From assembly GCA_963716045.1 (NCBI GenBank), contig CAVQSS010000012.1, forward strand, positions 66,482 to 130,481: DNA of 64,000 nt, written 5' to 3'. Below, one piece after another: positions 4,928 to 46,306 of the stretch. This stretch comes from an uncultured delta proteobacterium. Lineage in GTDB: Bacteria; Desulfobacterota; RBG-13-43-22. Position 1 is the first letter of the stretch; every line of letters starts with the position of its first letter. The notes beneath the pieces were generated by a model. It did not search any database and was not told the DNA's origin. It saw only the letters and a list, made by a program, of their open reading frames with translations. Both the position numbers and the translations under genes were made by a program.

Positions 4928-6202
4928 TTATTTCGTAGCCTCAAAACTAAAAGTCAAGTCGGACGTAAGTATCTCGTTCATGTGGTAGAATGCCGGGGCG
5001 AAGGTATAGTTGACACCTCCCTCAAAATTAGTTGGTACTATATCTCCTATCCAACCTGAAGGCTGGGAAAGGGAACATTCCCCTAAGTTTGTTGGAACGG
5101 TAACAATCTGGCAATAGACCTTGCTCCCATTGGCATGGTTAATCCCATTAAACCAAATAATAAATTTTTCACTGGGGGGCAGCAGGGCGCCACCCGGACT
5201 TTTTACTGAAACAGTAATTTTGTAAACATGCCCAGTCGGGGGTACTGTTTGGCCCCAGTAAGAAGGCGCATAGTAGTCCTGGGTTTTGTTTTCTTTCAGG
5301 GTGTTATAATCAATTCTTTCAGGCCAGAACTCAAAACCCGAGAGTACTGGCTTAACCCATCCTGTCCAACCATCTGGGACAGAAAGGGAATAATTGCCAT
5401 TCGCATCCGTAACGCTCCTGGAGGAAAGAGAACCGTCTTCCGTCCAGGCTTCCATCGCCACCATGGGTAATGGATTGGATGGAATCGTGGTATTAAAGTG
5501 GTTTTTCCAAATTACGTTACCACTGATGGTAACTATAGCCAGTTTTTCAGCAATAAAATCCTGTTTTTCATGGAGATATTGACTTCCGACAATCGGTATA
5601 TCCGGAGGTTTAAACTCGTAGCCAGACAATTGAGGTGTTAAGGCAAAACTAACTCCGGCATTTTCCTCTGTTTCATAATATCCGTTACTATTGGTTGTCG
5701 CCAATAGCTTCTTAACAAATTGATCCTTAACATATACATCACCATATATCTCAACATTTTCCAACCCTTTTCCGTTGTGTAAAACAGTTCCGCTGATTGT
5801 ATGTTTGTAAGCGGTAAAATCCTGAATTCCATCGTTATGTGAAACCCAAGAACCTGAAGGATCAAATTGGTAGCCATACTTTTCAGGATAAATAAAGTAC
5901 AGATTAGAAGAAAACCCTGCTCTATATTCTCCCTTGCTGTCAGTTACTGCCACAAGGTAAATCTTACCTGGTATTACTTGAGCATCCCAGGCAACTTCAT
6001 TAAAAATCTCGACGGCGGGTAGACCGCTTCCGTTAAAAATAACTCTTCCGCCTATTGCCGGAAAAGAATTATTAAAAATCATTCCAATAAAAATTCTGTG
6101 CATTAAATTGTCGTCCGCATTGGCCCGGGTGCCAAGGCAACAACCCAACCCAAAATTCAAGATACAAAAAAAGAAAACAATACGTTTCAGATGAATAGAC
6201 AT
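4928..6202 (-). CDS. Secreted hypothetical protein with repeated carboxypeptidase-regulatory-like / Ig-like beta-sandwich modules
   Basis: Repeated xTDxxGxY-type segments (VTDSKGEYRAGF, TNSNGYYETEE, VTDANGNYSLSVP). Signal-like N-terminus MSIHLKRIVFFFCILNFGLG. The ATG at 6202 has GGAGGG 8 nt upstream; the ORF is open to 6247. Lower-GC gene. Confidence 0.65.
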   Translation of the reverse strand: MSIHLKRIVFFFCILNFGLGCCLGTRANADDNLMHRIFIGMIFNNSFPAIGGRVIFNGSGLPAVEIFNEVAWDAQVIPGKIYLVAVTDSKGEYRAGFSSNLYFIYPEKYGYQFDPSGSWVSHNDGIQDFTAYKHTISGTVLHNGKGLENVEIYGDVYVKDQFVKKLLATTNSNGYYETEENAGVSFALTPQLSGYEFKPPDIPIVGSQYLHEKQDFIAEKLAIVTISGNVIWKNHFNTTIPSNPLPMVAMEAWTEDGSLSSRSVTDANGNYSLSVPDGWTGWVKPVLSGFEFWPERIDYNTLKENKTQDYYAPSYWGQTVPPTGHVYKITVSVKSPGGALLPPSEKFIIWFNGINHANGSKVYCQIVTVPTNLGECSLSQPSGWIGDIVPTNFEGGVNYTFAPAFYHMNEILTSDLTFSFEATK

Positions 6203-7056
6203 TCTTCTTCCCTCCGGTGGCTTTCCGTTCCTATCTTGGCTAAACATTCGACTTTTTTACCTTTAAGGACTTTTCATATCTACTTGTCGGATGATATAAT
6301 AGATCTTGACCGGATGTCAATTTCCAATATCTCACGAAAAAATCATCCAGGCGTTTAACCCGCAGGGGAGTTATTTGGTCCGGATGGGGGGGGGCGGAGG
6401 AACCCAAAGGGGATTTCGGGAATGTCCTTAGAATAGAAAAAGTGGATCAGCTGCGTTTGATCCACCCTAAATTTGATCACTTTAGACGGTAATCGTCATT
6501 TATCAGAATGCTCTCGATTGAGGAGTAGTAGGTATACAGAGTAAATTGGGGGGGAGGAGGAAGTTTTTCAAGGGATATCAAGACTTTCTTCCTGTACTGT
6601 TGTTTTTGAATTTTGGTCCATCCTGGAGGATTTCCAACGCAAATCATTAACGAAATGGAGCTATTAACCCCAGGGTTTCCTATGATCGGCAGGCTATTTG
6701 AAATAATACCAAACCCGGGTCTGGGTGGAGAGGTTTATCACTAATTTGGGGCCTTGACCATTCTTCCTCCCTTTTGGATTTAAAATACTCAATCCGCCCC
6801 CCCTCTATCCCCCGATTGATCACCCTATAACCACTTAACTTCATCAGCTATCCCCATTTTTTCTTCGTTTTTTCTCCTTAATCACTCTCTCGGCGTATCT
6901 TATACTTCTCATCCAGAAGGAACTTCTCATCAAACAAATCTTTGTTATGCACCCTTCCCTATCTGTAAACTGTCTTATTCACGAGAATTGTGTTAGGATA
7001 ATTGTGTTTGTATCGCAAAAACGCATCAAGCCGTTATCGGCGCAGTCTTCAGTCTT

Positions 7057-10044: not shown

Positions 10045-10953
10045 GCCGGATCATCATGGCAACCGAGCTCTCTCCGGGTGATCGATAAATTCGCCTAAAG
10101 AAGATGTATTGGACAACAGGAAAAGGAAAAATATAATGGGAGACAAGGGCAGTAAAAAAGATGTGGCCCGAATTTATTTAGGCGGCCGCCTTCAAATGAG
10201 AACCCTTATCTTTTGAAGGATCTCGCGCAACCGTTCAAGGTGCCTAAAACCTTGACCCGTCGCAGGGAGAGTTTTAGCATCATCTCAGAGACGAAACCCC
10301 CTGCCGCTGTTCTTGAGACGCTTAAAGGTCCTTGAGTCCAATGCCGAGGTTCTATTTCAACGGGAGGTATGCCCGTGATGGAATATTCCTAACGATAATT
10401 GTTTATCTCTGGATCTACCTCTTCCGAGGACTTGTAGGGTATGCCGTGTAAAACGTATGACTTGTTGGTTAAAGTCCGACCGTGGGAGTTCGGTAGTTCG
10501 CCCACGTAGCTTGAGGGAGGTGTAAAGGGTAACCTGAAGCACTAAGTTCCTTGACAAAGGCTCCTTTGGGGAGTTGAGCAAACCTGCGGGTTGCAGCGCA
10601 AGCGAACCTGGATGTAGCCTCGAAACACTAGATGGAGTTGTCGACCCTTTCCTACAGTGGGAAAGACCGGTGCATCTATCCTAACCATAACTACCATAAC
10701 CGATAGATGGGCTCCCGGGGTAACAGGGGTGACACGCAGGGGCAGCCATACGACAATAAGCACGGGAGGCCCTGGTCGATGCCTATCAGGCAACGGGTAA
10801 ATATAAGGAGACGAAATTTTACCGGGTCGGCCAGGGAGTCGGAGTTGCCCATAGTACCGCATGGATCTCAAGGACAACATAACCTTGGGAGAGGGAAGGG
10901 GCAATACTTTTATCACGTTTCAGAAGAAGTAAAGGAAAGGGGATTGCACGGAA

Positions 10954-12276
10954 GTGCTGAAAACTCCAGAGAAGATCCGGGAACTTCAGAGGAAACTATA
11001 CCGGAAGGCCAAGCAAGAGAAGGAGTACCGTTTCTATCTTCTCTATGACAAGATTTACAGGCTGGACATCCTGAACCAGGCCTACAGACTTGTCAAAGCG
11101 AACAGGGGAGCACCGGGAATCGACGGTGAAACCTTTGAACGTATCGGGGAGAGAGAAGGAGGAGTCGAGAAGTATCTGGAAGAGATTGCCGGGGAACTGA
11201 AGCGGAAAGACTACAAACCACAGGCTGTCCGTAGGGTCTACATTCCTAAGGCAGCCGGAGGCAAAAGACCGTTGGGAATACCGGTGATTAAAGACAGGGT
11301 AGTACAGATGGCTATGAAGATAGTAATCGAGCCTATCTTCGAAGCTGACTTTCAGGATAACTCGTACGGATTCAGGCCGAAGCGGAGTGCCCATCAGGCG
11401 GTGGATGATGTAAAGAACCATCTCTTTGAAGGCAAGACAGACGTAATCGATGCTGACATCTCCAAGTACTTCGATACCATACCTCATGACAGACTGATGC
11501 AGTTGGTGGCCAAACGCATCGTGGATAAGCAGATATTGAAACTTATCAAGATGTGGCTCAGGGCGCCAATTGTGGAGGAACGTGAAGATGGCAAGAAAGA
11601 GTACAAAGGGAATGACAAAGGGACACCGCAGGGAGGGGTAATATCTCCTCTGCTCGCCAATATCTACCTGAATGTACTTGACACCCTATGGTTGGCCAAG
11701 AAAGTACAGGAGAAACTGGGGGCAAGGCTGGTCAGGTATGCCGATGACTGTGTTATACTGTGCCGAGGCAATACCGACCGAATTCTGAAGTGGGTGAAGA
11801 GGGTTCTTGATGATCTTGGCCTCACGCTGAATGAGGAAAAGACTCGTATTGTGGATGCACGCCAGGAGAGTTTTAAATTTCTTGGATTCACCATAGGAAT
11901 GAAGCGAGGAATAAGAACCGGAAGAAGCTACACCCACATCGAGCCGTCTAAGAAAGCACTGGAACATATACGATCAGAAATTAAGCGCTTGACAACTGAG
12001 CGTTACAGTGCAGTGCCGACGGAAGACGTGATCCGGAAAGTTAATGAAGTCGCCAGAGGATGGGTAGGCTACTTTCGCTATGGCAATTGTACAAAAGCCA
12101 TGTCTTCTTTGAGATATTACCTGGGCTACAGAATGCGGATCTACCTGCGCCGGAAACACCACTACCACAGTCTTGGGTATAAGGCATATCCGGACAGGTA
12201 CTATTACGATACGTTAGGTCTGTACGAGGTTCCAACCAAGGCTCCATGGACTCAATCAGCGAAAGCGTCCGGATGA
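10954..12276 (+). CDS. ltrA: Group II intron reverse transcriptase/maturase (no endonuclease domain)
   Basis: 440 aa. RT motifs RGAPGIDG, RRVYIPKAAGGKRPLGIP, PQGGVISPLLANIYL and YADDCVILC, plus the maturase X-domain GWVGYFRYGN. No C-terminal HNH-type Cys/His cluster. GTG start. Confidence 0.92.
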   Translation: MLKTPEKIRELQRKLYRKAKQEKEYRFYLLYDKIYRLDILNQAYRLVKANRGAPGIDGETFERIGEREGGVEKYLEEIAGELKRKDYKPQAVRRVYIPKAAGGKRPLGIPVIKDRVVQMAMKIVIEPIFEADFQDNSYGFRPKRSAHQAVDDVKNHLFEGKTDVIDADISKYFDTIPHDRLMQLVAKRIVDKQILKLIKMWLRAPIVEEREDGKKEYKGNDKGTPQGGVISPLLANIYLNVLDTLWLAKKVQEKLGARLVRYADDCVILCRGNTDRILKWVKRVLDDLGLTLNEEKTRIVDARQESFKFLGFTIGMKRGIRTGRSYTHIEPSKKALEHIRSEIKRLTTERYSAVPTEDVIRKVNEVARGWVGYFRYGNCTKAMSSLRYYLGYRMRIYLRRKHHYHSLGYKAYPDRYYYDTLGLYEVPTKAPWTQSAKASG

Positions 12277-12287
12277 AGATAATCGGA

Positions 12288-12321
12288 AAGCCGTATTCGG
12301 GAAAACCGAACGTACGGTTTG
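12288..12321 (+). ncRNA. Group II intron domain V
   Basis: AAGCCGTATTCGGGAAAACCGAACGTACGGTTT has an AGC triad, a 9-bp lower helix, a bulge on the 3' strand, a 4-bp upper helix and a GAAA-type loop. Confidence 0.8.
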
Positions 12322-12563
12322 ATGAGGGGGAACTGGAAACCTCTGACCGCTACAGTTTTTAGTAGATGCGTGCATCGAAAAGTTCAAAAGCGGCCCCAGC
12401 CCGGCGCCAGCTCTCTACTCTACTGGAAGCGGTGAGCAGCCACTTGACGGGTTTTTGAATGGGTGCCGAAAACACCAGAACCTTCTGGAAGGGTCGATCG
12501 ATCCATGGGACGAATTTCCACGGCGTTCAGACTTTCAAGCTATCGTAAACATCTTTTCGATGA

Positions 12564-13637
12564 TTATAATGCGGGGGAATAAAATGCCGCCAGGAGATTC
12601 TTGATTATTTGCGCCGCAATGGGGTAGGTTTGGTCCAGACCCGCTTTCCGGGGGTTAAATTCGGTCAGATCCAGCCCGGCCAGCTTCACTCCTCTATCCA
12701 ATATATCCCTCAGGTATCCAATCAATCGAAAAAGCTGCGGTTCGTTGAGGCCCTGGCGGTCCAGGAAGCGGACGCCATCGAGGGCATTGCGGGCCCCGAT
12801 ATCCATATCCACCGAAACGTAGAGGTAGGCCGTCTTGATCCCTTCCAGGATTCGGCGAACCCGAGAGGGCGAACTCAATAGTTCGTCCTTGGTAACCAGG
12901 GTTACCCCGGCATTTTTCAGTTCCCGATAAAAATGGGTGTAATTTTTTATCCGCTCGTCTTTCAGTCGAAAGGCCTGCTGGGGGGGATAGTCGCTGATTC
13001 CCAGGAGGTAAAGGTTCCGGGGAAGGACGACCCTTTCGATCAGAAGGTCATAAAGAAAGGAGCCGGCATTATACGAATCGGGCCGACCGTATAGTAGGGG
13101 GTCTTCGGTATCATGCACCGAATCAGGGTTATTTTCCGCATCGTACTGGATGGCGGGGGCCAGGATGCTCATGGGCACGGCATCGATGTGGGAATCCAGG
13201 ACGACCAGGGCGGTTTCTTCCGGGGCGTGGCTTTCCGCCACCCGGCGATAGACTTCTCCCGTTAAGCAGTGATCCACGGCAATGAGGCAGGGGATATGGG
13301 GGAAAACCTCTTCTTCAACAAACCGGCCTACTTCTTCGGCCGTCTCCCGGCAGCCGTTTCGGTCGATGAAGGCGATGATTTCGGAGGAGGTCAATCGCGG
13401 TTTGCTGGAATCCGGTGGAAGGGGGTGAAGCCAGTCCGGGATTGGGATCAGCCCCTTGGATTCCCAGCGGTTGGGGTTAACCTCAGGGGTGACCAGGGAA
13501 AGAACGGATTGATAAGGGTCGATAAAGGTTTCCCTCCGGTCTATGGAAGCGAGCTTCTCCTGCAGGGCATCGTAGCGTTCGTCGCTGTCCAAGAGACAGC
13601 CGAAAAAAACCACTTTTTTGTCTAGGGGGTGCGTCAC
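12564..13637 (-). CDS. Arginase/agmatinase/formiminoglutamase-family (ureohydrolase) protein
   Basis: Mn-site-like motifs appear in order: AVDHC, LDSHIDAV (DxHxD), VSVDMDIG (SxDxDxxD) and DLTEFNP. Confidence 0.6.
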   Translation of the reverse strand: MTHPLDKKVVFFGCLLDSDERYDALQEKLASIDRRETFIDPYQSVLSLVTPEVNPNRWESKGLIPIPDWLHPLPPDSSKPRLTSSEIIAFIDRNGCRETAEEVGRFVEEEVFPHIPCLIAVDHCLTGEVYRRVAESHAPEETALVVLDSHIDAVPMSILAPAIQYDAENNPDSVHDTEDPLLYGRPDSYNAGSFLYDLLIERVVLPRNLYLLGISDYPPQQAFRLKDERIKNYTHFYRELKNAGVTLVTKDELLSSPSRVRRILEGIKTAYLYVSVDMDIGARNALDGVRFLDRQGLNEPQLFRLIGYLRDILDRGVKLAGLDLTEFNPRKAGLDQTYPIAAQIIKNLLAAFYSPAL

Positions 13638-13693
13638 GGCATCCAGATTCGAAATCCGGGGAAAAAGATTAAGACAATCTCTCGCAGAGCGCG

Positions 13694-13862
13694 CAGAGGA
13701 CGCAGAGAATACTTATTTTTTCATTGCCGGTGAGGGGTCGGCAATGAAAAACAGTCTCGGCGCTGTCGCGCATCCACGGCCGAAGGCCTGAGGAGGTTTT
13801 GGGCTGCCGTCCATCTCAACGGCAGCCCAAAAAAGATCTTTATCTGAGCCCTCTGCGTCCTC
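13694..13862. repeat. Intergenic element bounded by 12-14-nt inverted repeats, with two strong internal hairpins
   Basis: The arms are cagaggacgcagag (13694-13707) and ctctgcgtcctc (13851-13862). The internal hairpins are ttttcattgccg/cggcaatgaaaa and gggctgccgt/acggcagccc. T-runs precede and A-runs follow the hairpins, so these are not canonical terminators on either strand. Confidence 0.7.
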
Positions 13863-13907
13863 AAGCGAGTGAAGCGAGCGGGCGAAAGACAAAGGGATTA
13901 CCGTTAC

Positions 13908-14552
13908 TTATTTTACGGTAATTATATCCTTGATCTTGCCGAACTTGCCTTCTTTGATCCCTTTCACCTTCATCACATCCTCAATCTTGGTGTAGGGCCG
14001 TCCGTCGATGATGGCCTGAGCCAGGGCCGGTCCGATCTCCGGCAGGGCTTCCAGCGTGGCCTTGTCGGCCGAGTTGAGGTTCACTTTTTGACCGGGCGCC
14101 AGTTTGGGTGCCGCGGCTGTTTTTCCCTTTTCGGCAGGTTCCTTGGCTGGTTTTTCCTTGGCCACGGGTTCTTTAGCGGCTTTCTCTTTGGGGGCCGGGG
14201 TTTCTTTAGCCGGGGCAGCGGGAGCGGCGGCCTTGGCGGGGGCCGGGGCGGCCGCTGCCGGGCCCGCCGTCACCAGGGGCTTCAGCGTTTCAACGGCCTT
14301 ATCGTTTAAACCGGCTTTTTTTAACTCATCCGTGGATTTGTAAGGGCGACCGGCCACGATCTTCTTGGCCGTAGCCGGGCCCACGCCCGGGAGCCCTTCG
14401 AGGTCTTTTTCGGAGGCGCTGTTCAGATCGACGAGGGGTTTCTTCACTTGTCCCAGGGCAGGGTTGGAGTTTAGAAGCAAGCCGGTCGCCAGGACCAGGG
14501 TGAGTAAGAAGACCCAATTGAAATGCCGAAAAGCCAGACCATCTTTTTTCAT
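13908..14552 (-). CDS. ComEA-like protein with two helix-hairpin-helix DNA-binding modules and an Ala/Pro/Lys-rich linker
   Basis: Two HhH units are present (DLNSASEKDLEGLPGVGPATAKKIVAGRPYKSTDEL; NLNSADKATLEALPEIGPALAQAIIDGRPYTKIEDV), with a signal-like N-terminus. Confidence 0.75.
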   Translation of the reverse strand: MKKDGLAFRHFNWVFLLTLVLATGLLLNSNPALGQVKKPLVDLNSASEKDLEGLPGVGPATAKKIVAGRPYKSTDELKKAGLNDKAVETLKPLVTAGPAAAAPAPAKAAAPAAPAKETPAPKEKAAKEPVAKEKPAKEPAEKGKTAAAPKLAPGQKVNLNSADKATLEALPEIGPALAQAIIDGRPYTKIEDVMKVKGIKEGKFGKIKDIITVK

Positions 14553-14644
14553 AATTTCCCTCCTGTGTATAATTTTTGATTCGCTATCTTGGCGATGAAG
14601 TGCCTAAATTAATAAAATGGGTAGGGTTTAAAATAAATACCACG

Positions 14645-15058
14645 CTATGCCAGACCGGACTTAAAAACACTCAAAGCTTTTTCCAGCATGCCGGATTCCG
14701 GGACCGATCCGTCCGGGGTGAGCTTGTCGATAATCTGGGGCAGAAGACCGGCCAGGCCTCCAGACACCTCCTCGCTTGAAGTTCCCATCTTTTCGGCCAT
14801 TTGTTGGATCTGACCGTTGCCCAGGACCTCCTGTATCTGCTGGCCGGAGATGGGTAGGTTTTCCCCGGTACCAACCCAGGAAGACACGATATCGCCCAAC
14901 CCTTTACTGTTAAAGCTTTGAATCAATCCGGAAAGCCCCCCGCCCTGAGAACCGGACAGGAGATTGCCGACCATCCCCATAAGCGGATTCGAGCCTTCCC
15001 CGCCTAAAAAATTATTCGTCACTCCTTTTAACAGACCATCCAACAAGCCCATAAGCAC
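14645..15058 (-). CDS. YidB/DUF937 family protein
   Basis: The sequence GGLSGLIQSFNSKGLGDIVSSWVGTGENLPISGQQIQEVLG...LLPQIIDKLTPDG matches the YidB family pattern. Confidence 0.7.
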   Translation of the reverse strand: MLMGLLDGLLKGVTNNFLGGEGSNPLMGMVGNLLSGSQGGGLSGLIQSFNSKGLGDIVSSWVGTGENLPISGQQIQEVLGNGQIQQMAEKMGTSSEEVSGGLAGLLPQIIDKLTPDGSVPESGMLEKALSVFKSGLA

Positions 15059-15226
15059 TCCCAGTTTAAGAAAAGTGAGCCGAAGATGTTATCTTATCCC
15101 ATTTAGAAGCTTGTATACAACATCATAATATGAAAATAAAGTCGCTTCCTCCTGTCCTTGCGACCCCGGACTTGATCCGGGGGAAGCAACCCCCGGTTAG
15201 CTTATAACGATCCTCAAGCTCAATCG

Positions 15227-15262
15227 GGAGATTGCTTCGTCGCTTCGCTCTTCGCAATGACC
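15227..15262. repeat. Half-copy of the CATTGCGAG...GAAGCAATC palindromic repeat family
   Basis: ggagattgcttcgtcgcttcgctcttcgcaatgacc is nearly identical to 29544-29578. Confidence 0.8.
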
Positions 15263-15278
15263 GGTTATCCAATATTGC

Positions 15279-16271
15279 TCAGGGCGCTTCCCCTCCACTT
15301 TCGGTCCTTTCCAGAGATCCCCGACCCAAAGGCCAAAGGGATTTTAATCCCTGTTTCGTTTTCCCGGCCAGGGCGCTGCCCGCGGAGACGATTTTCTTCC
15401 CGGTGGCTTTGGTCAACGCCAGACCGATCTTCTGGGCGCCCTCCACGACGATAGCGCCCAATAATTTGGCTGCCTGGGCCGCGGCCTGCCTCCGGGCTTT
15501 CTTTTTTTCTATCCTCACCAGGGGGGCGCAGTACCAGGAGGTGATAATCCCCACCCTCAGGGTCAGGAAGGCGTTAGCCGTCCCATCCAGCGTGGCCGAT
15601 ACAAAGGGGGTGACCATGGCGCCTACGATGGGAACGGCAGTTATGCCGCTCATGGCCGATTCCACCAGGGGCTCCATCTGCTCGGAGAGGTCAATTTCCT
15701 CCAGGGCATAAGACATAAAAGCGGTAGCGGCCACATTGGAGTAAAGGTAGAGCAGGTCCCGGAGGGTGGGCCTTTGGTAATAGATCCCGGCGATGCGCCG
15801 GACCATGGTGATTTGGGCCGCCAGAACGATCAGCATGTCCAGGACGCCGTTTTGGGAAAGGGCGGTCCCCAGAAAGACCCGCTTGGCCCAATCCACGGAG
15901 ATTTGTTGCGCCTGGGCATGCAGTTTGGCGATGGCGCCCTCCAGTTCGGCAGCAGTACTGAGCGAGGATTCCATTAGAACCGGGTTGTCGGCCAGGCGTT
16001 TGCGGATCCGTTGGAGGTGCCGTTCAAAAGCGGGGCCGCTTTCCTCCTGGGGAGGGATAACCGGCTTGGGCAGCCGCAGGAAGGAGACCGCCGGGATCAG
16101 GACCAGGGCCAGGCCCAGGCCCAGGGCCAGAAAAGCGGCGATTCGCCCCAGGGTTTCGTTCACCCCGTAAAGCAATTGAACCACCCCGGCCAATTGGGCC
16201 GTCAGGAAGATTAAAAAGACGGCCAGAATAACCACCGCGAAGGCGGCCAGTCCGATTTTGGTTTTGTTCAT
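15279..16271 (-). CDS. DUF697/YcjF-like inner-membrane protein
   Basis: 330 aa with several TM segments. The central GTALSQNGVLDMLIVLAAQITMVRRIAGIYYQRP region resembles the DUF697 family. Assigned from memory of the family pattern only. Confidence 0.45.
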   Translation of the reverse strand: MNKTKIGLAAFAVVILAVFLIFLTAQLAGVVQLLYGVNETLGRIAAFLALGLGLALVLIPAVSFLRLPKPVIPPQEESGPAFERHLQRIRKRLADNPVLMESSLSTAAELEGAIAKLHAQAQQISVDWAKRVFLGTALSQNGVLDMLIVLAAQITMVRRIAGIYYQRPTLRDLLYLYSNVAATAFMSYALEEIDLSEQMEPLVESAMSGITAVPIVGAMVTPFVSATLDGTANAFLTLRVGIITSWYCAPLVRIEKKKARRQAAAQAAKLLGAIVVEGAQKIGLALTKATGKKIVSAGSALAGKTKQGLKSLWPLGRGSLERTESGGEAP

Positions 16272-16317
16272 AGCGATAAAGTATCTTCGGATAAAAATAA
16301 GGGTCTTTGAAATTTAC

Positions 16318-16346
16318 TTGACGGTCGGTAATCTCATCCTTACTAT
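16318..16346 (+). promoter_or_regulatory. Candidate sigma70-type promoter for the PPIase gene
   Basis: TTGACG (16318-16323), a 17-nt spacer and TACTAT (16341-16346). An AAGGAG RBS lies at 16368-16373. Confidence 0.3.
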
Positions 16347-16379
16347 AGCCATACAAAAATCTTCGTTAAGGAGTATCAC

Positions 16380-16985
16380 ATGAAAAGCCTATTGAAAAGA
16401 CTTCTTTGTATCCCCTTATGCCTGATTCCGTTTCTGGTTATGGCCGAAACCCGATTTAAAAATTATTCCAAGGAGGAAATTAAAAAGATGACGGATACCA
16501 CGGCAGTTATTGAGACCAAATTTGGTAAGATCGAAATCAAGTTTTTCCCGGAAGTTGCGCCGAATCATGTGAATAATTTCATTGAACTGGCCAAAAAAGG
16601 ATTCTATGACGGGACCACCTTCCACCGGGTCATTCCGGGGTTCATGATCCAGGGAGGCGATCCTAATTCCAAAGATCCCGACCGTAAGAAACACGGGATG
16701 GGTGGGCCGGGGTATGCCGTGAAAGCCGAATTCAACCAGACGCCTCACAAACGGGGCATACTTTCCATGGCCCGGTCATCCGATCCCGACAGCGCTGGGT
16801 CCCAGTTTTTCATCTGCGTGGCCGACGCCCCTTTTCTCGACCGGCAATACACGGCCTTCGGGCAGGTGACCTCCGGAATGGAGGCGGTGGATAAGGTTGT
16901 CGGGCAACCCCGGGACAAGCAGGACAATCCGCTGGAGCGGGTGGAAATTAAAGTCCTCCTGATCGAAAAGCCGGCACAAAAATAG
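16380..16985 (+). CDS. Cyclophilin-type peptidyl-prolyl cis-trans isomerase, exported
   Basis: FHRVIPGFMIQGGDP, GILSMARS and SQFFI motifs, with an N-terminal signal-like segment. Confidence 0.9.
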   Translation: MKSLLKRLLCIPLCLIPFLVMAETRFKNYSKEEIKKMTDTTAVIETKFGKIEIKFFPEVAPNHVNNFIELAKKGFYDGTTFHRVIPGFMIQGGDPNSKDPDRKKHGMGGPGYAVKAEFNQTPHKRGILSMARSSDPDSAGSQFFICVADAPFLDRQYTAFGQVTSGMEAVDKVVGQPRDKQDNPLERVEIKVLLIEKPAQK

Positions 16986-27821: not shown

Positions 27822-27900
27822 TTAGATTCTAACAGCCATTGTTCTGAGAATTTGTCTCTAACAATGGCTGTTAGAATCTAATTTCAAATTTTTTTGGTTA
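27822..27900 (-). repeat. Structured intercistronic hairpin element, copy 2 (perfect 22-bp stem)
   Basis: The stem ttagattctaacagccattgtt / aacaatggctgttagaatctaa is perfect and the loop is ctgagaatttgtctct. The AT-rich tail abuts the mmsA stop. On the minus strand the hairpin ends about 20 nt before the AAGGAGG RBS of the FAD oxidoreductase. Confidence 0.85.
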
Positions 27901-27904
27901 GGGA

Positions 27905-36824: not shown

Positions 36825-37042
36825 TTTTTTTGCCGCAGACTCACACGGACAAAGGCGGGCAAAAATGGTCCCACAGGATTTACAGGATAGAAAGAAACTT
36901 TTTGCTTTTTCGGTAAAGACGCCCAAAAAAGCAAGAGACTCCATCACTTCGCAAACGTTTGATTTTGCGTGCCTGAAGCTTGAGAGGTAAGCCAGAGGAA
37001 AGGTGACAGATGCTTTATAGTTCCCTCCCCCTTAACGGGGGA

Positions 37043-37156
37043 GGGGCTTCGACGTGAGCTCAGCCGAACGTTAGGGCGGGGGTGAAACCTTTTGGAGTGA
37101 AGATTCCGGAAGTCACCCACCCCCCAAACGTTCGGCTGAGCTCACGTCGAAGCCCC
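37043..37156. repeat. Perfect 30-bp inverted repeat separated by 54 nt (GGGGCTTCGACGTGAGCTCAGCCGAACGTT family)
   Basis: 37043-37072 is the exact reverse complement of 37127-37156. It is flanked by CCCTCCCC/GGGGAGGG mini-hairpins. Related copies lie at 20716-20888 and 46160-46250. Confidence 0.9.
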
Positions 37157-37234
37157 CTCCCGTCGAGGGAGGGGGAGCACCTATACCATTTATTACCATA
37201 TTTTTTTCAATGCTTATTTTTACAGGGAAATATA

Positions 37235-38669
37235 ATGACAGAAGAAGTTTCGGTTGAAACCAGCGTTCCGGTTAGTCCGGCGGAGCCCCAACCCCCTGGG
37301 CCTGTTGAACCCGAGCTGGAAGCCAAGCCCGAGCCGGCCCGCGAGATCCCGCTTTCCAATTTATCCGCTTCCCGATTGATTCAGCTCGAGGCCTGTACCC
37401 GCTGCGGTGAATGCCTGAACTGGTGCCCGGTCCACGATCAGGACGCCCGGGAACCGGTCATCCCGCGGAAGAAAATCGCCGATTTCCTGCACATCGTGAA
37501 GAACCAGCAGTCCCTGCTGACCCGGATCATGAAACAGGAAAAAATCGAGCGATCCGATCAAAAAACTGCTGGCCGCAGTCTTCCGCTATAAAGAGGTCGG
37601 TCAAGTCGAAGTCGATGAATTTGTCCGCAACCTGTATGAATGTTCCACCTGCGGGCAGTGCCAAGTGGTCTGCCCGGCCAACATCGATACGGTCAACCTC
37701 TGGGAGGATATCCGCCGTCTGATCGTGACCGCCGGTTACGGCCCGCTGGAGTCCGCAGAAGGTCCTGGTAAAAAGCGTCAAGGCCTACGACAATCCCTGG
37801 CAGCAGCCGCGGGCCGCCCGCACCAAGTGGGCGCGCCGGGCGCAAAAAGACGTCCTGATTGCGCCCCGCCGCGGGAGATCAAGAAGAACGGGGCCAAGGT
37901 CCTGCTCTGGCTGGGGTGTACGGCGGTCTATGACGTCAACGTGAAACAGATCGCCATCAGCACCATCAATATCCTGGAAAGCCTGGGGATCGACTACGGC
38001 TGCCTGGGCGGCGACGAAAAATGCTGCGGCAGCGTGCTCCTGCGCATGGGAGACGCGGAATTCGGACGGATCGCCGGCGACAACATCAAACAGCTCAACG
38101 CCCTGGGCATCCAGACCCTGGTCAGTTCCTGCTCCGGTTGTTTCAAGACCATCAAGGAGGACTACCCCAAGGTGGGAAAGCTGAATTTCGAGGTGCTTCA
38201 TACCGTAGAATACCTGCGGCGGTTGCTGGAAGATAAGAAACTGCCTTCCTTCGAACCCCTGGAAAAAAAGATCACCTACCATGATCCCTGCCATCTGGGC
38301 CGGGCCAGCGGCGTCTTTGATGATCCCCGCATTATCCTGGGCGCCATCCCGGGTCTGGAGCTGATCGAAATGCCCCGTAGCCGGGAATATTCCCGGTGCT
38401 GCGGCGCCGGCGGGGGGCTCAAGGCCGGCTACCCGGATATCCAGAACAAGATGGCCCAGGAACGGGTGAAGGAGGCTCAGGCCACCGGGGCCCAGGAATT
38501 GATCTCGGCCTGCCCCTTCTGCTACGCCGGTCTTCAGGTGGGGATTAAAGCCATGGATTCCCCCCTGGTCATGAAGGACGTGACCGGCCCTGGTGGAAGA
38601 ATCGCTTATAAAGAAGGCCGGCTGATAACCGGCGCTGGACCCGTAAAAAGTCCCTTCGTACCATTCTGA
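37235..38669 (+). pseudogene. HdrD/DsrK/GlcF-like CCG-domain Fe-S oxidoreductase, disrupted by frame changes
   Basis: The N-terminal part is in frame 2 (37235-37591; CTRCGECLNWCP). The remainder is in frame 0 (homology from about 37545; track ORF 37665-38669; CSTCGQCQVVCP, EKCCGS, RCCGAGGG). An internal ~110-nt stretch has its homologous reading in frame 1. A paralog lies at 25038-26360. Confidence 0.8.
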
Positions 38670-39713: not shown

Positions 39714-40400
39714 GTGTATTGGGTCCCCAAGGAGGATGCCAACAGGCTGAGGCAGGCCCTGGCCCGAAGGGAAGTGGATGTCACCGAGATAAGAAAAGCG
39801 GTCTGCCTGCCCCTGTCCCGGCGGGTGGAAGTCGGCCTGGTGGCCCCGGAGGTCTGGGAAGATTATGCCTTGTGCCGGAGGCAGTTTTCCTGGTACCGCC
39901 ATTCCCCCCGGCAGGGCCAGACCCTGGTGGTCAGCTCCGATCCCTTACCCGGGGTCGCAGGTGGCCCCGCCGTCATTATTCAAGATTCCTCTTTTCGTCC
40001 TCCCGCGCTGCCCGACCGGGAGGCTCAGACAGCCTTGATTCAACGGGAAAGCTACCGGAGTTCCCGGCCGGAGGAATGGGAGAACATCGGGGCCGAAGAC
40101 CGGGAGGCGCAACAGAAATGGTTGAAGGTCATGGGCCTCCAGGGCCTGACCTTCGAGGAATTATTTATCAGCCATTGTGCTAACCACGCCAATTTCATCG
40201 AACCGGCCTATCAGGTCCTGGAAGACCACCATCCCGTTCCCTACTCCCTGGGCAAGACCCGCACGGTCTGCTCGGCCTGCCTGGAATTCTATAATATCAT
40301 CGGATCGCCTTTTAAAAGAAAATATGTGGTCCCCTGCCCAGGGGCGGTACTGTTTGCCGGGATGGTCCCCAATCACTATTATGAGGTGATCAGTCCCTGA
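39714..40400 (+). CDS. Hypothetical protein with a C-terminal Cys/His-rich region
   Basis: 228-aa ORF with protein-like composition, unlike the Arg/Gly/Pro-rich alternative frame at 39719-40183. The C-terminus is ISHCANHANFIEP...TVCSACLEF...VVPCPG. No family recognised. Confidence 0.5.
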   Translation: MYWVPKEDANRLRQALARREVDVTEIRKAVCLPLSRRVEVGLVAPEVWEDYALCRRQFSWYRHSPRQGQTLVVSSDPLPGVAGGPAVIIQDSSFRPPALPDREAQTALIQRESYRSSRPEEWENIGAEDREAQQKWLKVMGLQGLTFEELFISHCANHANFIEPAYQVLEDHHPVPYSLGKTRTVCSACLEFYNIIGSPFKRKYVVPCPGAVLFAGMVPNHYYEVISP

Positions 40401-41004: not shown

Positions 41005-41163
41005 CGGAGGATTCCCACCAAGCTGGAGTTGCATCCCTTGGGCGGCAAACTTGCCGGTTGCCAGGCCGTAAACCTCACCCACAGCTATCGCATCACTCTG
41101 ACTCTTTTAATAAACGACCGGGAAATCATTCTACTTGATAAAGGAAATGCAGGCCTTCCGTAA
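41005..41163 (+). pseudogene. Remnant of a RelE/YafQ-type toxin gene (C-terminal part only)
   Basis: Frame 1 reads ..PTKLELHPLGGKLAGCQAVNLTHSYRITLTLLINDREIILLDKGNAG.., resembling the ..HPLxGxxxGxxxxHxxxDxxLIY..... tail of RelE/YafQ toxins. No plausible start codon or N-terminal half is present. Confidence 0.35.
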
Positions 41164-41387
41164 CCGGTGGGCCCATGCGGGCTGCAGAAATAACTAAACT
41201 GGTTTATGGAAGATAGGATGCTGACCGGAAATGGTGTATTTGTCTGATTTTCAGTATTATTTAGAAAAAAACTATTCTCTGGGACATTTCGGGAAAACCA
41301 CTTAATTACATTGTTGGCGCCGCCTGCGGCGCCAACAACCAGGCCATTGGACACCGATGTCACTTGCTTGCATGGGCCATCGGCCCC

Positions 41388-41402
41388 GCAAGCTTCGTGC
41401 CA
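41388..41402 (-). promoter_or_regulatory. Sigma54-type -24/-12 promoter match on the minus strand
   Basis: The minus strand reads TGGCACGAAGCTTGCG, an exact fit to TGGCACG-N4-TTGC. It points leftwards towards the GTTGGCGCC/GGCGCCAAC hairpin at 41313-41337. Confidence 0.35.
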
Positions 41403-41446
41403 CGGGTCAACGCCGCATTAGCTGAAACTTTAGGAGATCACGACAG

Positions 41447-42475
41447 ATGAACGGTATTCCAGAATACTTAGTCTTACCAGACAAGGTCTATGCCCTGACC
41501 GCTAAAAGGACAGATGGGGGGCGGGCTTTTGACAGGATGATAGTTGATTACCTTGTCGAAGGCATAAACCCAATGTCTGACGCGGACACGTGGAGAACTC
41601 GTCTAGGGATGAGCAGGGAGCTTTCGGATGATTATCCGAGCTTCAAAGAAGCGATTCCTATTGACTGGGTGCTCTTCAGGTTTCTATGTCACTTTGTACG
41701 CACAAACTCCATTCACGTTCTCTCCGGGAATAACGGCCAGGTCTTAACCTCGCCAAGTTACAAAGACTACTTGGGTCATGAGCCAGCAGAGGAATATGCC
41801 GATCTAATGCTACGAACGGTATTCGTGGCCTGGGTACGAGTTCTTCCCGGGAGAGCAATATCCCTCGCAGACGTCTATGCCTCTACTGACCTAACCATCA
41901 ACCAGTTGAAATGCAGCATCAATGCTCTCATATTTCAGGGCCATGTTCAAGAAACCGAGGAATACAAATACATGATACGGCCCAGTATTTTCGACAACCG
42001 TGTCTTTATAAAGAACTCGCCCTCTTTAGACAGGATGTCAAACCGTTACTATCAAGAAATCACGATAGAGGCTAACGACCCGTTTTGTTTTGTCATTATG
42101 CCATTCAAAGAAGAAGAGTTTTCGCAAAGGATATACGGCAATGTAATCAAACCCTTTGTTGAAGACCAATTCAAAATTGGCTGCTACAGAGTGGATGAGG
42201 ACAATCTGCCTGATCGCATAGACAACAAGATATACAGCTACCTCCTTCGGTCAGCATTTGTAATCGCGGAAGTCACAACTCTAAACCCAAACGTATTCTA
42301 TGAGCTGGGGCTAGCCCATATGCTGGAAAAGGACTGCATTATTGTCACAAACACACTCATATCAAAGATACCATTCGATATCAATAGAATCAGGGCCGAG
42401 CACTATGATAGCGATCAGCAATTGACTCAGATTCTTGAGAGGGCGATATCGGCGCTTGCTTTCAAATCCAAATAG
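41447..42475 (+). CDS. Hypothetical protein: unknown N-terminal domain plus a C-terminal nucleoside-2-deoxyribosyltransferase-like / TIR-like Rossmannoid domain
   Basis: The C-terminal ~130 aa reads CFVIMPF...IDNKIYSYLLRSAFVIAEVTTLNPNVFYELGLAHMLEKDCIIVTN...IPFDI. Lower-GC ORF with an AGGAG RBS. Confidence 0.6.
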   Translation: MNGIPEYLVLPDKVYALTAKRTDGGRAFDRMIVDYLVEGINPMSDADTWRTRLGMSRELSDDYPSFKEAIPIDWVLFRFLCHFVRTNSIHVLSGNNGQVLTSPSYKDYLGHEPAEEYADLMLRTVFVAWVRVLPGRAISLADVYASTDLTINQLKCSINALIFQGHVQETEEYKYMIRPSIFDNRVFIKNSPSLDRMSNRYYQEITIEANDPFCFVIMPFKEEEFSQRIYGNVIKPFVEDQFKIGCYRVDEDNLPDRIDNKIYSYLLRSAFVIAEVTTLNPNVFYELGLAHMLEKDCIIVTNTLISKIPFDINRIRAEHYDSDQQLTQILERAISALAFKSK

Positions 42476-42544
42476 GGGCTGGGGATATTAGTGAATCAAG
42501 AAAACGGCTACCGAGTAAGTGCACTTGACGCGGAAGGATGTCGG

Positions 42545-42610
42545 GCTCAATACGATGAGGCTTTACGTGCCTTCTGTTCGTCCCCCGCGAAGGGGAACAT
42601 CGTGTTAGGC
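42545..42610 (+). mobile_element. attC-like recombination site (66 nt)
   Basis: R''-like GCTCAAT (42545-42551) and R' GTTAGGC (42604-42610, fits GTTRRRY). Nt 42545-42557 pair with 42598-42610 (10 WC, 2 G-T, 1 mismatch). Internal hairpins are present. The site lies immediately 3' of an ORF. Confidence 0.4.
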
Positions 42611-42638
42611 AGGGACATAGAATGAAATTCAGGAAGGA

Positions 42639-43304
42639 ATGATTATGGCCATTTTGGATAAGATACTTGGCAAGGAGGTTGCGACTTTTTCATTTGAATT
42701 TGATCCTGACTTCGAGTCCAATTCAACCATGGCCGTAAGAGAAAGTGGTCTTCTTGATCAAGCCTACTATAATTGGGTTTGGAGTCTCTATTACGCCAAG
42801 ACCCTGTACACTCTCGGCAACAGCACGATCTCGGTGGGGCTCAAAGATTGTTTAGATCAATGGGCCGAACGCTTGGCCCCGGGAATGGGCTTTCCCTTAC
42901 AGGTTTCAGAGGAAATGGGTTTATGCACTCTCGACAAGGAGTTGCGCTTAGTCAACGAGCTGCGGAATCCTGATAAGGACGTCTATTTGCTAGGAGTTCT
43001 TCAGAGGCAAAACAAATGGCCTTACATTAAAACATCACAGTCTGGCAAGGCTTATCAAAATAGGTTCGCTTGCTCGGTCATTGGCTTAGGGCAGTATTTC
43101 ATAAATAAGAATACTGACTTCACGAGAGAATTACCATTGCATATCCTCTCGGCAAGGAAGTACTATCGAGAAAACAGACCATTTACCGACATAAAAAGCA
43201 CAACCGAGGCTCCGGCATTTGGCATCAGAGAGTCAATGAAAATCTGGGACCACCTTGGTAAGGAACTGGACGCAATCGAGAAAGAACTGGACGAGAATCG
43301 CTGA
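42639..43304 (+). CDS. Hypothetical protein (cassette-like ORF)
   Basis: 221-aa ORF, lower GC, with no recognisable motif. The second ATG at 42645 is better spaced from the AGGAAGG RBS. Confidence 0.55.
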   Translation: MIMAILDKILGKEVATFSFEFDPDFESNSTMAVRESGLLDQAYYNWVWSLYYAKTLYTLGNSTISVGLKDCLDQWAERLAPGMGFPLQVSEEMGLCTLDKELRLVNELRNPDKDVYLLGVLQRQNKWPYIKTSQSGKAYQNRFACSVIGLGQYFINKNTDFTRELPLHILSARKYYRENRPFTDIKSTTEAPAFGIRESMKIWDHLGKELDAIEKELDENR

Positions 43305-43329
43305 ACGTCGTAGACATACTCAGTATGAT

Positions 43330-43393
43330 GCCTAACGAGACGCCGCACTGGATCGGCAGGAAACGGGGCCTCCCGGTGAACTTTTTGTTGGGT
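43330..43393 (+). mobile_element. attC-like recombination site (64 nt)
   Basis: R'' GCCTAAC (43330-43336, fits RYYYAAC) and R' GTTGGGT (43387-43393, fits GTTRRRY). The terminal 13 nt pair with 8 WC, 4 G-T and 1 mismatch. An inner CACTGG/CCGGTG stem is present. Confidence 0.35.
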
Positions 43394-43461
43394 AACTGCG
43401 ACTTTTCTCCACACTGCCTTTGAGGTTCAGATTATGAAAGATTTTTATTCCGACATATCGA

Positions 43462-43869
43462 ATGTTTAGTAGAAATGCGTTTTCTGAAATGCGAAGAGCG
43501 GGCCTGGGTGTAAGCATATCCTCGGCCAAGCTATCCGCAGCCATGCTCGACGTTCTTCTCCAGCTTCCCGTCGGTTCGATGAACCTGAAGGAGACTGTCG
43601 TCCGGCACCTGGGATTGCTGGGTCAGATGACCCCGGTCAGGGATATCAACCAGGCCTGGAACCAAACAAAGAAAAAGGCCGCTCAACTATATCCGGAAAA
43701 GTTCATTCTTGAGGGCAGAAACACCTTGGCCTGGAACAACGGTACTAAGAGGGTATTAGACAAAGACATCTCGTCGGCCAATCTAAAAAAGCTCAATGAC
43801 TTAGCCGATATAGAAAAGTGTACGGTTAACGCTATGGTAACAAAACTCATAAAGGCCTATAAAGGGTAA
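43462..43869 (+). CDS. Hypothetical protein
   Basis: 135-aa ORF, lower GC. The C-terminal ANLKKLNDLADIEKCTVNAMVTKLIKAYK is vaguely like a ribbon-helix-helix or helical DNA-binding tail. No family recognised. Confidence 0.45.
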   Translation: MFSRNAFSEMRRAGLGVSISSAKLSAAMLDVLLQLPVGSMNLKETVVRHLGLLGQMTPVRDINQAWNQTKKKAAQLYPEKFILEGRNTLAWNNGTKRVLDKDISSANLKKLNDLADIEKCTVNAMVTKLIKAYKG

Positions 43870-43921: not shown

Positions 43922-45076
43922 ATGAGCGAGTATCAGTACTACGAATTCCAGGCCGTGGATCGGCCGTTAACGCTGGAGCAGATATCCGTGCTGAGGGCCT
44001 ACTCCTCCCGCGCCCAGATCACGGCGAGCAGCTTCATTGTGGATTACAGCTATGGCGACTTCAATGGCAATCCGGAAAAGTGGCTGGAGCAATATTTTGA
44101 TGCGTTCCTTTACCTCGCCAATTGGGGGACTCACCAGTTTTTGTTGGGATTGCCCCAAAAGCTGATCGACCAGGACACCATAGGGCCCTACTGCGCCGGC
44201 GAAAGCCTTTCCTGTCGTTCGAAAGGGGATAAAGTCATTCTGACTTTTCAGTCCGAGGATGAGGATGGTGAGTGGGCCGAGGGGGAGGGCTGGCTGGCGT
44301 CGCTTTTGCCGATTCGCGCTGATTTGATATCTGGCGATTACAGAGCCCTGTACCTCGGCTGGCTGGGGTCGATTGAATCCGGGGAGATTGATGACGATGG
44401 GTTGGAGCCGCCTGTGCCGGCTGGACTCAGAACCCTTAACGCTTCCCTGGATCGGCTCGCCGATTTCCTGGGTCTCTCCAGGGACCTGATTGCGGCGGCA
44501 ACGGAAGCCAGTCCCGGCGAGCAGGCTTCCGGCTTATCGCAAGAAGAGTTTGGAAATTGGGTTCTAAGCCTACCGAGTCAAGAAAAAGATATGCTCCTCT
44601 TACGTCTGGTCGAGGGGGGCGACCCGCACCTCATGGCTGAGCTTCGGCAGCGAGCCTGGCGCGAGATCCGCGGCGGGGCAAAGCCGGTCAAAGGTCCTCG
44701 CCGGACCGCCGGCCAGATCAGGGCTCGTGCCGATAGTTTGGCCGAGGCGCGCAGAAGATACGAGGCTGAACAGCGCGCCCGGGACAAGGCCAGGCGCGAG
44801 CAAGAGGAGACCGAAAAACGGCAAAAGCACCTTAAGTCCCTCGCCGGCAAGGAGGAAATTCTTTGGGCCAAAGTCGAGGAACTCATTGCCACCAAACAAC
44901 CGAAACGGTACGATGAGGCGGTTTCTCTTCTCCGAGACCTGCGGGATCTCGCCGACCTGCGGGGCCGGAACTCCGATTTTTCATCGTCCCTGAATACAGT
45001 CCTCACTCAACACTTGCGTAAGGGCACCCTGGTGGACAAGGTTCGAAGAGCCAAACTCCTGCCGCAGGATACTTAG
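43922..45076 (+). CDS. Conserved hypothetical protein (MSEYQYYEF...DRPL N-terminus, acidic middle, Arg/Glu-rich coiled-coil tail)
   Basis: 384-aa ORF with core-like GC and protein-like composition. I recall this N-terminal signature from uncharacterised proteins in diverse bacteria but cannot name a family. Confidence 0.6.
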   Translation: MSEYQYYEFQAVDRPLTLEQISVLRAYSSRAQITASSFIVDYSYGDFNGNPEKWLEQYFDAFLYLANWGTHQFLLGLPQKLIDQDTIGPYCAGESLSCRSKGDKVILTFQSEDEDGEWAEGEGWLASLLPIRADLISGDYRALYLGWLGSIESGEIDDDGLEPPVPAGLRTLNASLDRLADFLGLSRDLIAAATEASPGEQASGLSQEEFGNWVLSLPSQEKDMLLLRLVEGGDPHLMAELRQRAWREIRGGAKPVKGPRRTAGQIRARADSLAEARRRYEAEQRARDKARREQEETEKRQKHLKSLAGKEEILWAKVEELIATKQPKRYDEAVSLLRDLRDLADLRGRNSDFSSSLNTVLTQHLRKGTLVDKVRRAKLLPQDT

Positions 45077-46099: not shown

Positions 46100-46306
46100 T
46101 CACCTCAGCCCTCTCCCCCGGGGGGGAGAGGGAGCCCAAGGGAACGGCCCAAGCCCTTTGACTTCCCCTCCCCGTGGGAGGGGACTTCGACGTGAGCCCT
46201 TCGGCTGTGAGCTCAGGGCCGAACCGCTCAGTCGAACGTTTGAGGGGTGGGGGAACTCGTGATTTTCATCCTTCGAGGTTGGGCGTTCGATGTTCAATGT
46301 TCGTTT
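46100..46306. repeat. Cluster of repeat units inside the SBP-permease spacer
   Basis: The cluster contains the CCCTCTCCCC-N4-GGGGAGAGGG hairpin (46109-46133), the ggggacttcgacgtgagccc..gagctcagggccgaaccgctcagtcgaacgtt family (46180-46240) and a cgttcgatgttcaatgttcg unit (46274-46306). A further CCCTCCCC/GGGGAGAGGG hairpin lies at 46466-46490. Confidence 0.8.

Follow-up and report, generated by a model that had tools for sequence, protein, structure and literature searches.

The DNA analysed here, a 64,000-nt stretch of contig CAVQSS010000012.1 from an uncultured delta proteobacterium (hereafter the window; features lie on the + strand unless stated otherwise), carries three co-directional open reading frames (ORFs) of low GC content: ORF1 (41447-42475, 342 aa), ORF2 (42639-43304, with a start more likely at 42645, where the Logan gene call also places it, giving 219 aa) and ORF3 (43462-43869, 135 aa, from a widely dispersed family). 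Their GC contents of 0.453, 0.453 and 0.480, against a window mean of 0.54 and 0.56-0.60 in the flanking core genes, agree with an earlier sequence-only reading of this DNA; ORF4 (43922-45076, 384 aa), which comes next, has a host-like GC content of 0.58. That reading had drawn an integron attC site in each of the two spacers, site 1 after ORF1 (42545-42610) and site 2 after ORF2 (43330-43393), and had proposed gene cassettes with no integrase in the window. This core proposal is upheld by the analysis presented here: ORF1 and ORF2 belong to integron cassettes, one recognisable attC site is retained, and intI is absent from the window. ORF1-3 have no match in Pfam or NCBIfam, exact-protein look-ups gave no record for the full-length products of ORF2, ORF3 and ORF4, and a promoter and terminator scan of 40.9-45.2 kb returned counts at chance level. 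In integrons the integrase folds an attC site along its bottom strand and cuts between G and TT, the cassette being excised as a circle or inserted.

Cassette boundaries and attC sites at ORF1 and ORF2

Two surrogate attC covariance models, R1 and R2, were home-made and are distinct from IntegronFinder's own model. R1 was seeded with 12 sites from the comparison loci L005, L010, L012, L019, L106, L109 and L110 and given a hand-written structure (R box, spacer, 3-bp stem, unpaired base, 6-bp stem, unpaired A and 5-bp stem-loop). At E ≤ 0.001 it retrieved 52 sites from 22 array loci, every one of them on the gene strand, and R2 is a model-based realignment of those 52 sites from which the window sequence was excluded. 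A first harvest that demanded outer R-box complementarity had been too strict and was replaced by AAC...GTT plus fold energy, and MAFFT with RNAalifold across mixed attC classes gave no structure, so the homogeneous 12-site seed was used instead. Genuine array sites score 27-73 bits under the seed model R1. As a positive control, R2 was run on two class 1 integron plasmids, where it found the three attC sites directly 3′ of aac(6′)-Ib4 (47.6 bits), arr-3 (39.0 bits) and dfrA14 (35.7 bits), none of them in the training set, and nothing else above 11.3 bits. The negative control, 80 related genome loci totalling 1.24 Mb, gave a best match of 14 bits.

Searching the window with R2, filters off, placed site 2 at the top with a full-length match of 26.9 bits (E=2e-4), whose ends are exactly those proposed earlier; the next-best match had E=0.91 and covered part of the model only, and no further attC was detected in the 64 kb on either strand. 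R1 also ranks site 2 first in the window (16.3 bits). The site runs from R″ GCCTAAC (43330-43336) to R′ GTTGGGT (43387-43393), contains the L-box core CACTGG-A-TCGGC...GCC-TC-CCGGTG and retains both unpaired positions of the model, with stems 1 and 3 containing two mispairs each. Site 1 had no match to R1 or R2 at E ≤ 10 in 64-kb and 6.6-kb searches with filters off. The attC-model check that the sequence-only reading had called for, made here with the surrogate R2, thus came out significant for site 2 and empty for site 1.

The four boxes of that reading (GCTCAAT 42545-42551 and GTTAGGC 42604-42610 for site 1, and those of site 2 above) were correctly placed, and a recount of the terminal arms gave identical pairing, namely 10 Watson-Crick pairs, two G-T pairs and one mismatch at site 1 and eight, four and one at site 2, the top-strand G-T pairs being A-C mismatches on the recombinogenic bottom strand. 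As attC evidence these 13-nt palindromes were dropped, since shuffling puts them at chance level: the site 1 palindrome, the best 13-nt inverted repeat of the first spacer, was equalled in 21 of 500 dinucleotide shuffles (p about 0.04) and in 52 of 392 same-sized window tiles, and the terminal palindrome of site 2 in 236 of 500 shuffles. A strict box scan (RYYYAAC...GTTRRRY) was discarded too, as it misses most real attC sites and picks up a pair at 9635-9705 that arises by chance. Rfam, applied to the window at gathering thresholds and to 41.0-44.5 kb at E ≤ 10, returned no attC; what it reported was limited to a group II intron and a P27 fragment that is spurious. Site 2 stands above chance because of its covariance-model score together with cassette homology, and it is a real attC.

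Site 2 closes a single-ORF cassette at 42605-43387 that holds ORF2. The box GTTAGGC at 42604-42610 is the exact complement of GCCTAAC at 43330-43336 (7/7), with the junction G|TT at 42604|42605. All 15 ORF2 homologue clusters are metagenomic, and the neighbours of the homologues differ at each locus. ORF2-family cassettes occur in L006-L012, L019 and L021, with textbook examples at L006, L007, L008, L009, L010, L012, L019 and L021: a GTTRRRY box lies 30-60 nt before the ATG, a hairpin site opening xxxxAAC lies 20-70 nt past the stop codon, and upstream sequences part ways exactly at G|TT. The upstream R′ complements the cassette's own R″ in L006 (GTTGTAA/TTACAAC), L007 (GTTATCC/GGATAAC), L010 (GTTGGGC/GCCCAAC), L009, L012 and L019 as well as in the window, the overall tally for this rule being seven other ORF2-family cassettes. 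Because the window obeys the rule, the complete cassette 42605-43387 delimited in the sequence-only reading is confirmed, and with it GTTAGGC as an R′ box and junction. The ORF2 product has a confident predicted structure (predicted local distance difference test score, pLDDT, 78.7) and no match in Pfam, a PDB sequence search or Foldseek.

ORF1 has more than 1000 homologue clusters, whose named members include metagenome-assembled genomes (MAGs) labelled Deltaproteobacteria and Nitrospirota. The homologue P0023 (88% identity to ORF1) is read identically on 24 contigs, in about 10 different arrays; in L103-L112 its gene always has G|TTGGCC at the start and its own attC, GGCCAAC...G|TT, at the end, and the flanks of these cassettes diverge exactly at both G|TT boundaries. 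In L108 the P0023 gene is the first cassette and adjoins a divergently transcribed integron integrase, which reaches 429.5 bits on TIGR02249 integrase_gron, where the cutoff is 265, and shares 48% identity with IntI1 across 322 aa. The closest cassette encodes P0016 (91% identity to ORF1; L119-L121), starts with TTAGCCGAAAC and has the R″ box GGCTAAC.

Alignment to the cassettes of L103-L112 and L119-L121 delimits an ORF1 cassette relic at 41418-42604, the 3′ end being uncertain, with untranslated regions (UTRs) whose homology to the ORF1-family cassettes begins and ends at cassette boundaries. At the 5′ side this homology begins at A|TTAGCTGAAAC (41417|41418), the relic end TTAGCTGAAAC... corresponding to the cassette starts TTGGCCGAAAC and TTAGCCGAAAC. 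At the 3′ side a conserved 3′-UTR motif, ATTAGTGAATCAAGAAA (42487-42503), is followed by GGCTACC (42506-42512), by homology the decayed GGCTAAC/GGCCAAC R″ of the ORF1 attC, and then by GTGCAC...; candidate R′ boxes are GTGCCTT (42567), GTTCGTC (42576) and GTTAGGC (42604). The 5′ junction ATTAGCT and the R″ relic GGCTACC are complementary at four of seven positions. Site 1 as drawn in the sequence-only reading is consequently an inverted repeat, not an attC: GCTCAAT, taken there for R″, lies inside the eroded 3′ arm, and only GTTAGGC is a real junction.

A long imperfect hairpin is found just upstream of the relic (41342-41423, termed site 0). The site ends in cATTAGCT, where homology to the ORF1-family cassettes starts, and its hairpin (41342-41415) ends 2 nt ahead of the junction A|TTAGCT. 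Its bottom strand folds at −20.8 to −23.3 kcal/mol (z=−2.9), and its R2 score of 5.0 bits is not significant. Site 0 may be a third, decayed attC in which ATT replaces GTT. It comes directly after a perfect 12-bp GC-rich palindrome without assigned strand (TTGTTGGCGCCG/CGGCGCCAACAA, 41311-41338), whose fold of −16 kcal/mol (z=−5.3) was equalled by none of 200 shuffles.

The PADLOC TIR effector model matches ORF1 residues 217-327 (E=1e-12), and the AlphaFold model of ORF1 (pLDDT 76.6) retrieved DNPH1, NDT and TIR structures in Foldseek with a TMt of 0.6-0.74; a PDB sequence search was uninformative. As modelled, ORF1 would combine an N-terminal domain of no assigned family with a C-terminal TIR-like or nucleoside 2-deoxyribosyltransferase (DNPH1)-like domain. 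Anti-phage functions are reported to be common among integron cassettes (bioRxiv 10.1101/2024.07.02.601686), and the predicted domains of ORF1 fit this reported content. A further homologue, P0038 (84% identical to ORF1), occupies a fixed context between pyrG and a peptidase M16 gene in L113-L118, where no attC was found and a TIR_2 protein and a TrkA_N/RyR protein adjoin it. The ORF1 family thus occurs outside cassettes as well, in defence-island-like settings.

Chromosomal surroundings and other elements

Scanning for relatives of the hdrD-like protein (37665-38669), one genome per species, gave the 80 related loci, nearly all from Thermodesulfobacteriota or 'delta proteobacterium' MAGs. Their conserved core order is g35367, the hdrD-like gene, x39714, sbp (the ABC-transporter substrate-binding protein gene, 45103), permease, ATPase and g48067; x39714 (39714-40400, 228 aa) was matched beside the hdrD-like gene in over 40 of these loci. 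Two points of this order are occupied by additional DNA in the window, namely a Phd/PIN module between the hdrD-like gene and x39714, and, between x39714 and sbp, HicAB, a RelE/ParE remnant and ORF1 to ORF4. At the second point other lineages (L029, L034, L037 and L097) have unrelated insertions, in which an R2 scan found no attC.

Homology between the window and L122 starts exactly at the ATG of ORF3 and continues through ORF4 into the sbp/ABC transporter genes, this common right flank being 90% identical in nucleotides; an MNT/HEPN module lies between ORF3 and ORF4 in L122 and L025. Directly upstream of ORF3, L122 has a different attC (42.4 bits; 5479-5533) and then a 143-aa ORF (region 5551-6408). 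R2 detected no attC after ORF3 or ORF4, nor at Phd/PIN and HicAB, and Phd/PIN stands between the same two core genes in L023, L025 and L026. Two suggestions of the sequence-only reading are not borne out by these comparisons, that ORF3 is cassette-like and that the neighbouring toxin-antitoxin (TA) modules fit a cassette array. ORF3 travels with ORF4 and the ABC transporter in L122 and L025, and would here belong to the right flank; it is not demonstrably a cassette. An alignment of 43394-43461 as a possible remnant of the L122 143-aa ORF was rejected, as the local alignment was equalled by 42 of 500 shuffles.

The comparison of the window with L122 suggests a turnover of cassettes at one chromosomal spot in two lineages. 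Because the window has the ORF1 and ORF2 cassettes there and L122 another attC with the 143-aa ORF, the gap upstream of the ORF3-ORF4-ABC block might be a recurrent cassette docking site without an integrase of its own; we put this forward tentatively, as unlikely. Independent insertions would make the spot either a natural hotspot of the attG type or a cryptic attI-like site among uncultured Thermodesulfobacteriota. Separately from the docking-site idea, and also speculatively, ORF1 is a candidate single-gene anti-phage cassette, because of its predicted TIR/DNPH1-like domain, its more than 1000 clusters across phyla and its family's place as first cassette beside IntI.

The closest relative, L025 (CAVUPH010000012.1), carries the same ORF1-ORF2-ORF3 block with deletions at window positions 41814-41996, 42061-43153 and 43303-43785, by which both sites are gone; no breakpoint falls at G|TT, where the sequence-only reading had expected them. 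On the left flank of the cassettes, the window retains the C-terminal remnant of a RelE/ParE-type toxin gene (41023-41163, frame ...LELHPLGGKLAGCQAV...). Window positions 41023-41070 match L025 13648-13695, and L025 (13330-13700) retains the antitoxin together with the toxin's N-terminal part and lacks window positions 41071-41446. The two lineages thus carry reciprocal deletions of an ancestral RelE/ParE-type TA module. Between 37 and 50 kb the window and L025 form a mosaic, with 92-97% protein identity for Phd, PIN, HicA, HicB, permease and ATPase and 70-77% for the hdrD-like protein, x39714 and sbp, which hints that the island was exchanged between lineages by recombination.

Other elements were encountered in the window and its relatives. 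A group II intron lies at 10462-12423 (Rfam RF02003 at 10462-10601, 87 bits; RF00029 at 12286-12423, 46 bits), and the 440-aa ORF between the two matches (10954-12276) is presumably the intron reverse transcriptase/maturase. A palindromic intergenic element, ...CCCCACCCC.CAAACGTTCGACTGAGC...GCTCACGTCGAAG.CCCCTCCC..., is repeated at ~37030-37160 and, inverted, at ~46160-46290, upstream of the hdrD-like operon and the ABC permease, and also occurs in L026; it yields spurious ORFs with the motif PNVRLSSRRSP and was rejected as an attC, scoring only 9 bits. The low-GC (0.31) palindrome at 27856-27903, CTCTAACAA...GTTAGGG, matches the attC models on both strands at 10-11 bits (E about 3) and is probably an unrelated hairpin matched via its end boxes only. 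The marine contig L002 holds a 13-kb co-directional array beside uvrB (3600-16900), with repeats of about 310 nt that end in TTGTTAG and in which the model detects only a few attC sites; between uvrB and the array lies an IntI-like fragment of 30 aa (3293-3382, − strand; E=0.008). This could be an integron that has lost its integrase and whose repeats are atypical and very long.

Origin and present state of the cassettes

Querying the window by tblastn with IntI1, XerC and the environmental IntI of L108 revealed no tyrosine recombinase (best E=1.9), as had been claimed from the sequence alone, and no intI pseudogene, and the intI and attI that accompany the array of a complete or sedentary integron are absent from the window. 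Searching every fetched locus for IntI at E ≤ 1e-3 gave none, the L108 integrase having surfaced through the Pfam context listing. Taken with the cassette junctions, the single attC and the relic at ORF1, these results make it very probable that two integron cassettes sit at a chromosomal hotspot as a fossil, decaying without a local integrase. The two would have landed in tandem in a variable spot between x39714 and sbp on a sulfate-reducer-type (Thermodesulfobacteriota) chromosome, and we infer that they arrived by integrase-mediated insertion at a non-attI (attG-type) site or were left over from a lost integron platform. In cassette 1 (about 41418 to 42576-42604), the junction would then have changed from GTT to ATT, and its attC would have eroded, the AAC of R″ turning into ACC and the stems being broken. 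Cassette 2 would have kept a recognisable attC with a weak predicted hairpin. Both would afterwards have been inherited without a local integrase and are most likely frozen remnants, with the sister lineage L025 apparently shedding the block via ordinary deletions.

Several observations weigh against this reading. An integrase could lie elsewhere in the genome, and only site 2 passes the surrogate model, where at least two attC sites make up a CALIN (attC sites clustered with no integron-integrase) under the IntegronFinder default. The bottom-strand fold of site 2 (−7.6 kcal/mol, z=+0.2) is no better than that of shuffled sequence, so that activity can be neither assumed nor excluded from it, and leaves the R box unpaired; at −0.12 kcal/mol per nt it compares with a median of −0.26 among 45 genuine attC sites. 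That of site 1 is weak as well (−9.9 kcal/mol, z=−1.6). The R2 training arrays were reached via ORF1 and ORF2 homologues and include an attC sub-class resembling site 2 (L012, L005 and L021), and the calibration of R2 E-values is only rough; circularity is made less likely by the independent controls, positive as well as negative. Among the 80 related loci there is none with both flanks but no cassettes, that is, an empty site. Finally, the cassette remnants in L025 are 92-95% identical to the window in nucleotides, against 80-86% for the flanking core genes, an excess that suggests recombinational exchange rather than simple vertical descent.

Among the alternatives, the one that survives best is an active CALIN, in which both cassettes could be mobilised in trans by an integrase encoded elsewhere in the genome or on an incoming mobile element. 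Site 2 does have R″ and R′ boxes of canonical form and keeps the L-box core along with the two unpaired positions of the model, integrases can act on attC sites in trans (bioRxiv 10.1101/2022.09.11.507474), and 5 of the 45 unique training attC sites fold weakly too (−0.10 to −0.15 kcal/mol per nt). Against mobility stand the ATT in place of GTT at the ORF1 junction and ACC in place of AAC in its R″, the four broken pairs of site 2 and its score below every validated site, the L025 deletions away from G|TT and the lack of intI within 64 kb; we consider an active cluster improbable.

Far less likely still is that the locus forms the distal tip of some large sedentary chromosomal integron, with its integrase and remaining array beyond the window, as the sequence-only reading had also considered. 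The small co-directional ORFs with TA modules nearby would suit such an end, as would the ORF3-ORF4 segment, which is common to L122 while the upstream cassettes differ, as if the distal part were oldest. Core genes that keep their synteny, however, flank the locus on both sides: immediately upstream come x39714 and the hdrD-like gene, in an order shared by more than 40 genomes, and no contiguous intI or attC array occurs in the 41 kb upstream or the 20 kb downstream. No other attC exists on either strand of the 64 kb, and the TA modules are devoid of attC, with Phd/PIN placed between two core genes.

That chance palindromes merely lie between orphan genes of a defence or TA island, without any integron origin, deserves next to no credence: palindromes and box matches at chance level, weak folds and an empty Rfam search speak for it, but site 2 scores far above all controls, the junctions coincide with the limits of homology to bona fide cassettes, and a homologue of ORF1 lies beside IntI.

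Read as a decaying fossil, the locus would offer a natural example of what becomes of cassettes without an integrase, namely attC erosion and gene loss by ordinary deletion. It illustrates that model-based attC counts can under-call, the second cassette being exposed here by homology, extends the hosts of stray cassettes to Thermodesulfobacteriota MAGs, and flags a very widespread cassette-borne protein, TIR/DNPH1-like as modelled, as a possible defence gene.

Comparison with known integron elements

With the environmental chromosomal integrons of L108, L106 and L109-L112 the window shares the ORF1 cassette family, the G|TT rule and the attC architecture (R box, unpaired spacer, stem, extrahelical base, 6-bp stem, extrahelical A and terminal stem-loop). 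It differs from them in that their arrays have a strongly folding attC after every ORF (28-73 bits; −0.2 to −0.4 kcal/mol per nt), which the window lacks, and in that L108 has an integrase and the window none.

Class 1 integrons differ in their intI1, Pc promoter, 3′ conserved segment, resistance genes and mobile-element context, all missing from the window. Their cassettes (aac(6′)-Ib, arr-3 and dfrA14) nevertheless carry attC sites that are recognised by R2, the model built from environmental sites, and the two are therefore recombination sites of the same kind.

The window also resembles insertions at attG sites (Loot et al., bioRxiv 10.1101/2022.09.11.507474), in which cassettes lie among chromosomal genes, far from attI and intI, and its junctions are compatible with the G|WT target. 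In contrast to that target, the left junction now reads A|TT, and a tandem of two cassettes needs two events or a two-cassette circle.

The closest correspondence is with integrase-less cassettes. The IntegronFinder default counts as a CALIN at least two attC sites (E ≤ 1) on one strand within 4 kb (PMC9024848, PMC4889954), and a single attC lacking integron-integrase (SALIN) is one attC with an associated coding sequence and no other att site or integrase nearby (bioRxiv 10.1101/2022.09.11.507474). The window has one attC, an associated coding sequence and no nearby integrase. Most likely the element is thus a SALIN by strict attC count or, once the decayed ORF1 site is included, a degenerate CALIN of two cassettes; of the CALIN-type cluster proposed in the sequence-only reading, the integrase-less cassettes stand, and the strict count makes it a SALIN. 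Small size, one or more promoterless cassettes with attC, and no intI or intI pseudogene nearby are features common to the window and such elements: CALINs with only two cassettes number 1362 of 2961 (bioRxiv 10.1101/2022.09.11.507474), and no intI pseudogene is found near 95% of CALINs (Cury et al. 2016, PMC4889954; Neron et al. 2022, PMC9024848). The window is set apart by having one model-passing site and a second cassette known by homology only, by its visible decay, and by a sister lineage in which the same element is cut by deletions. It is an ordinary, eroding case of a known kind of element, and the current understanding of integrons is unchanged by it.

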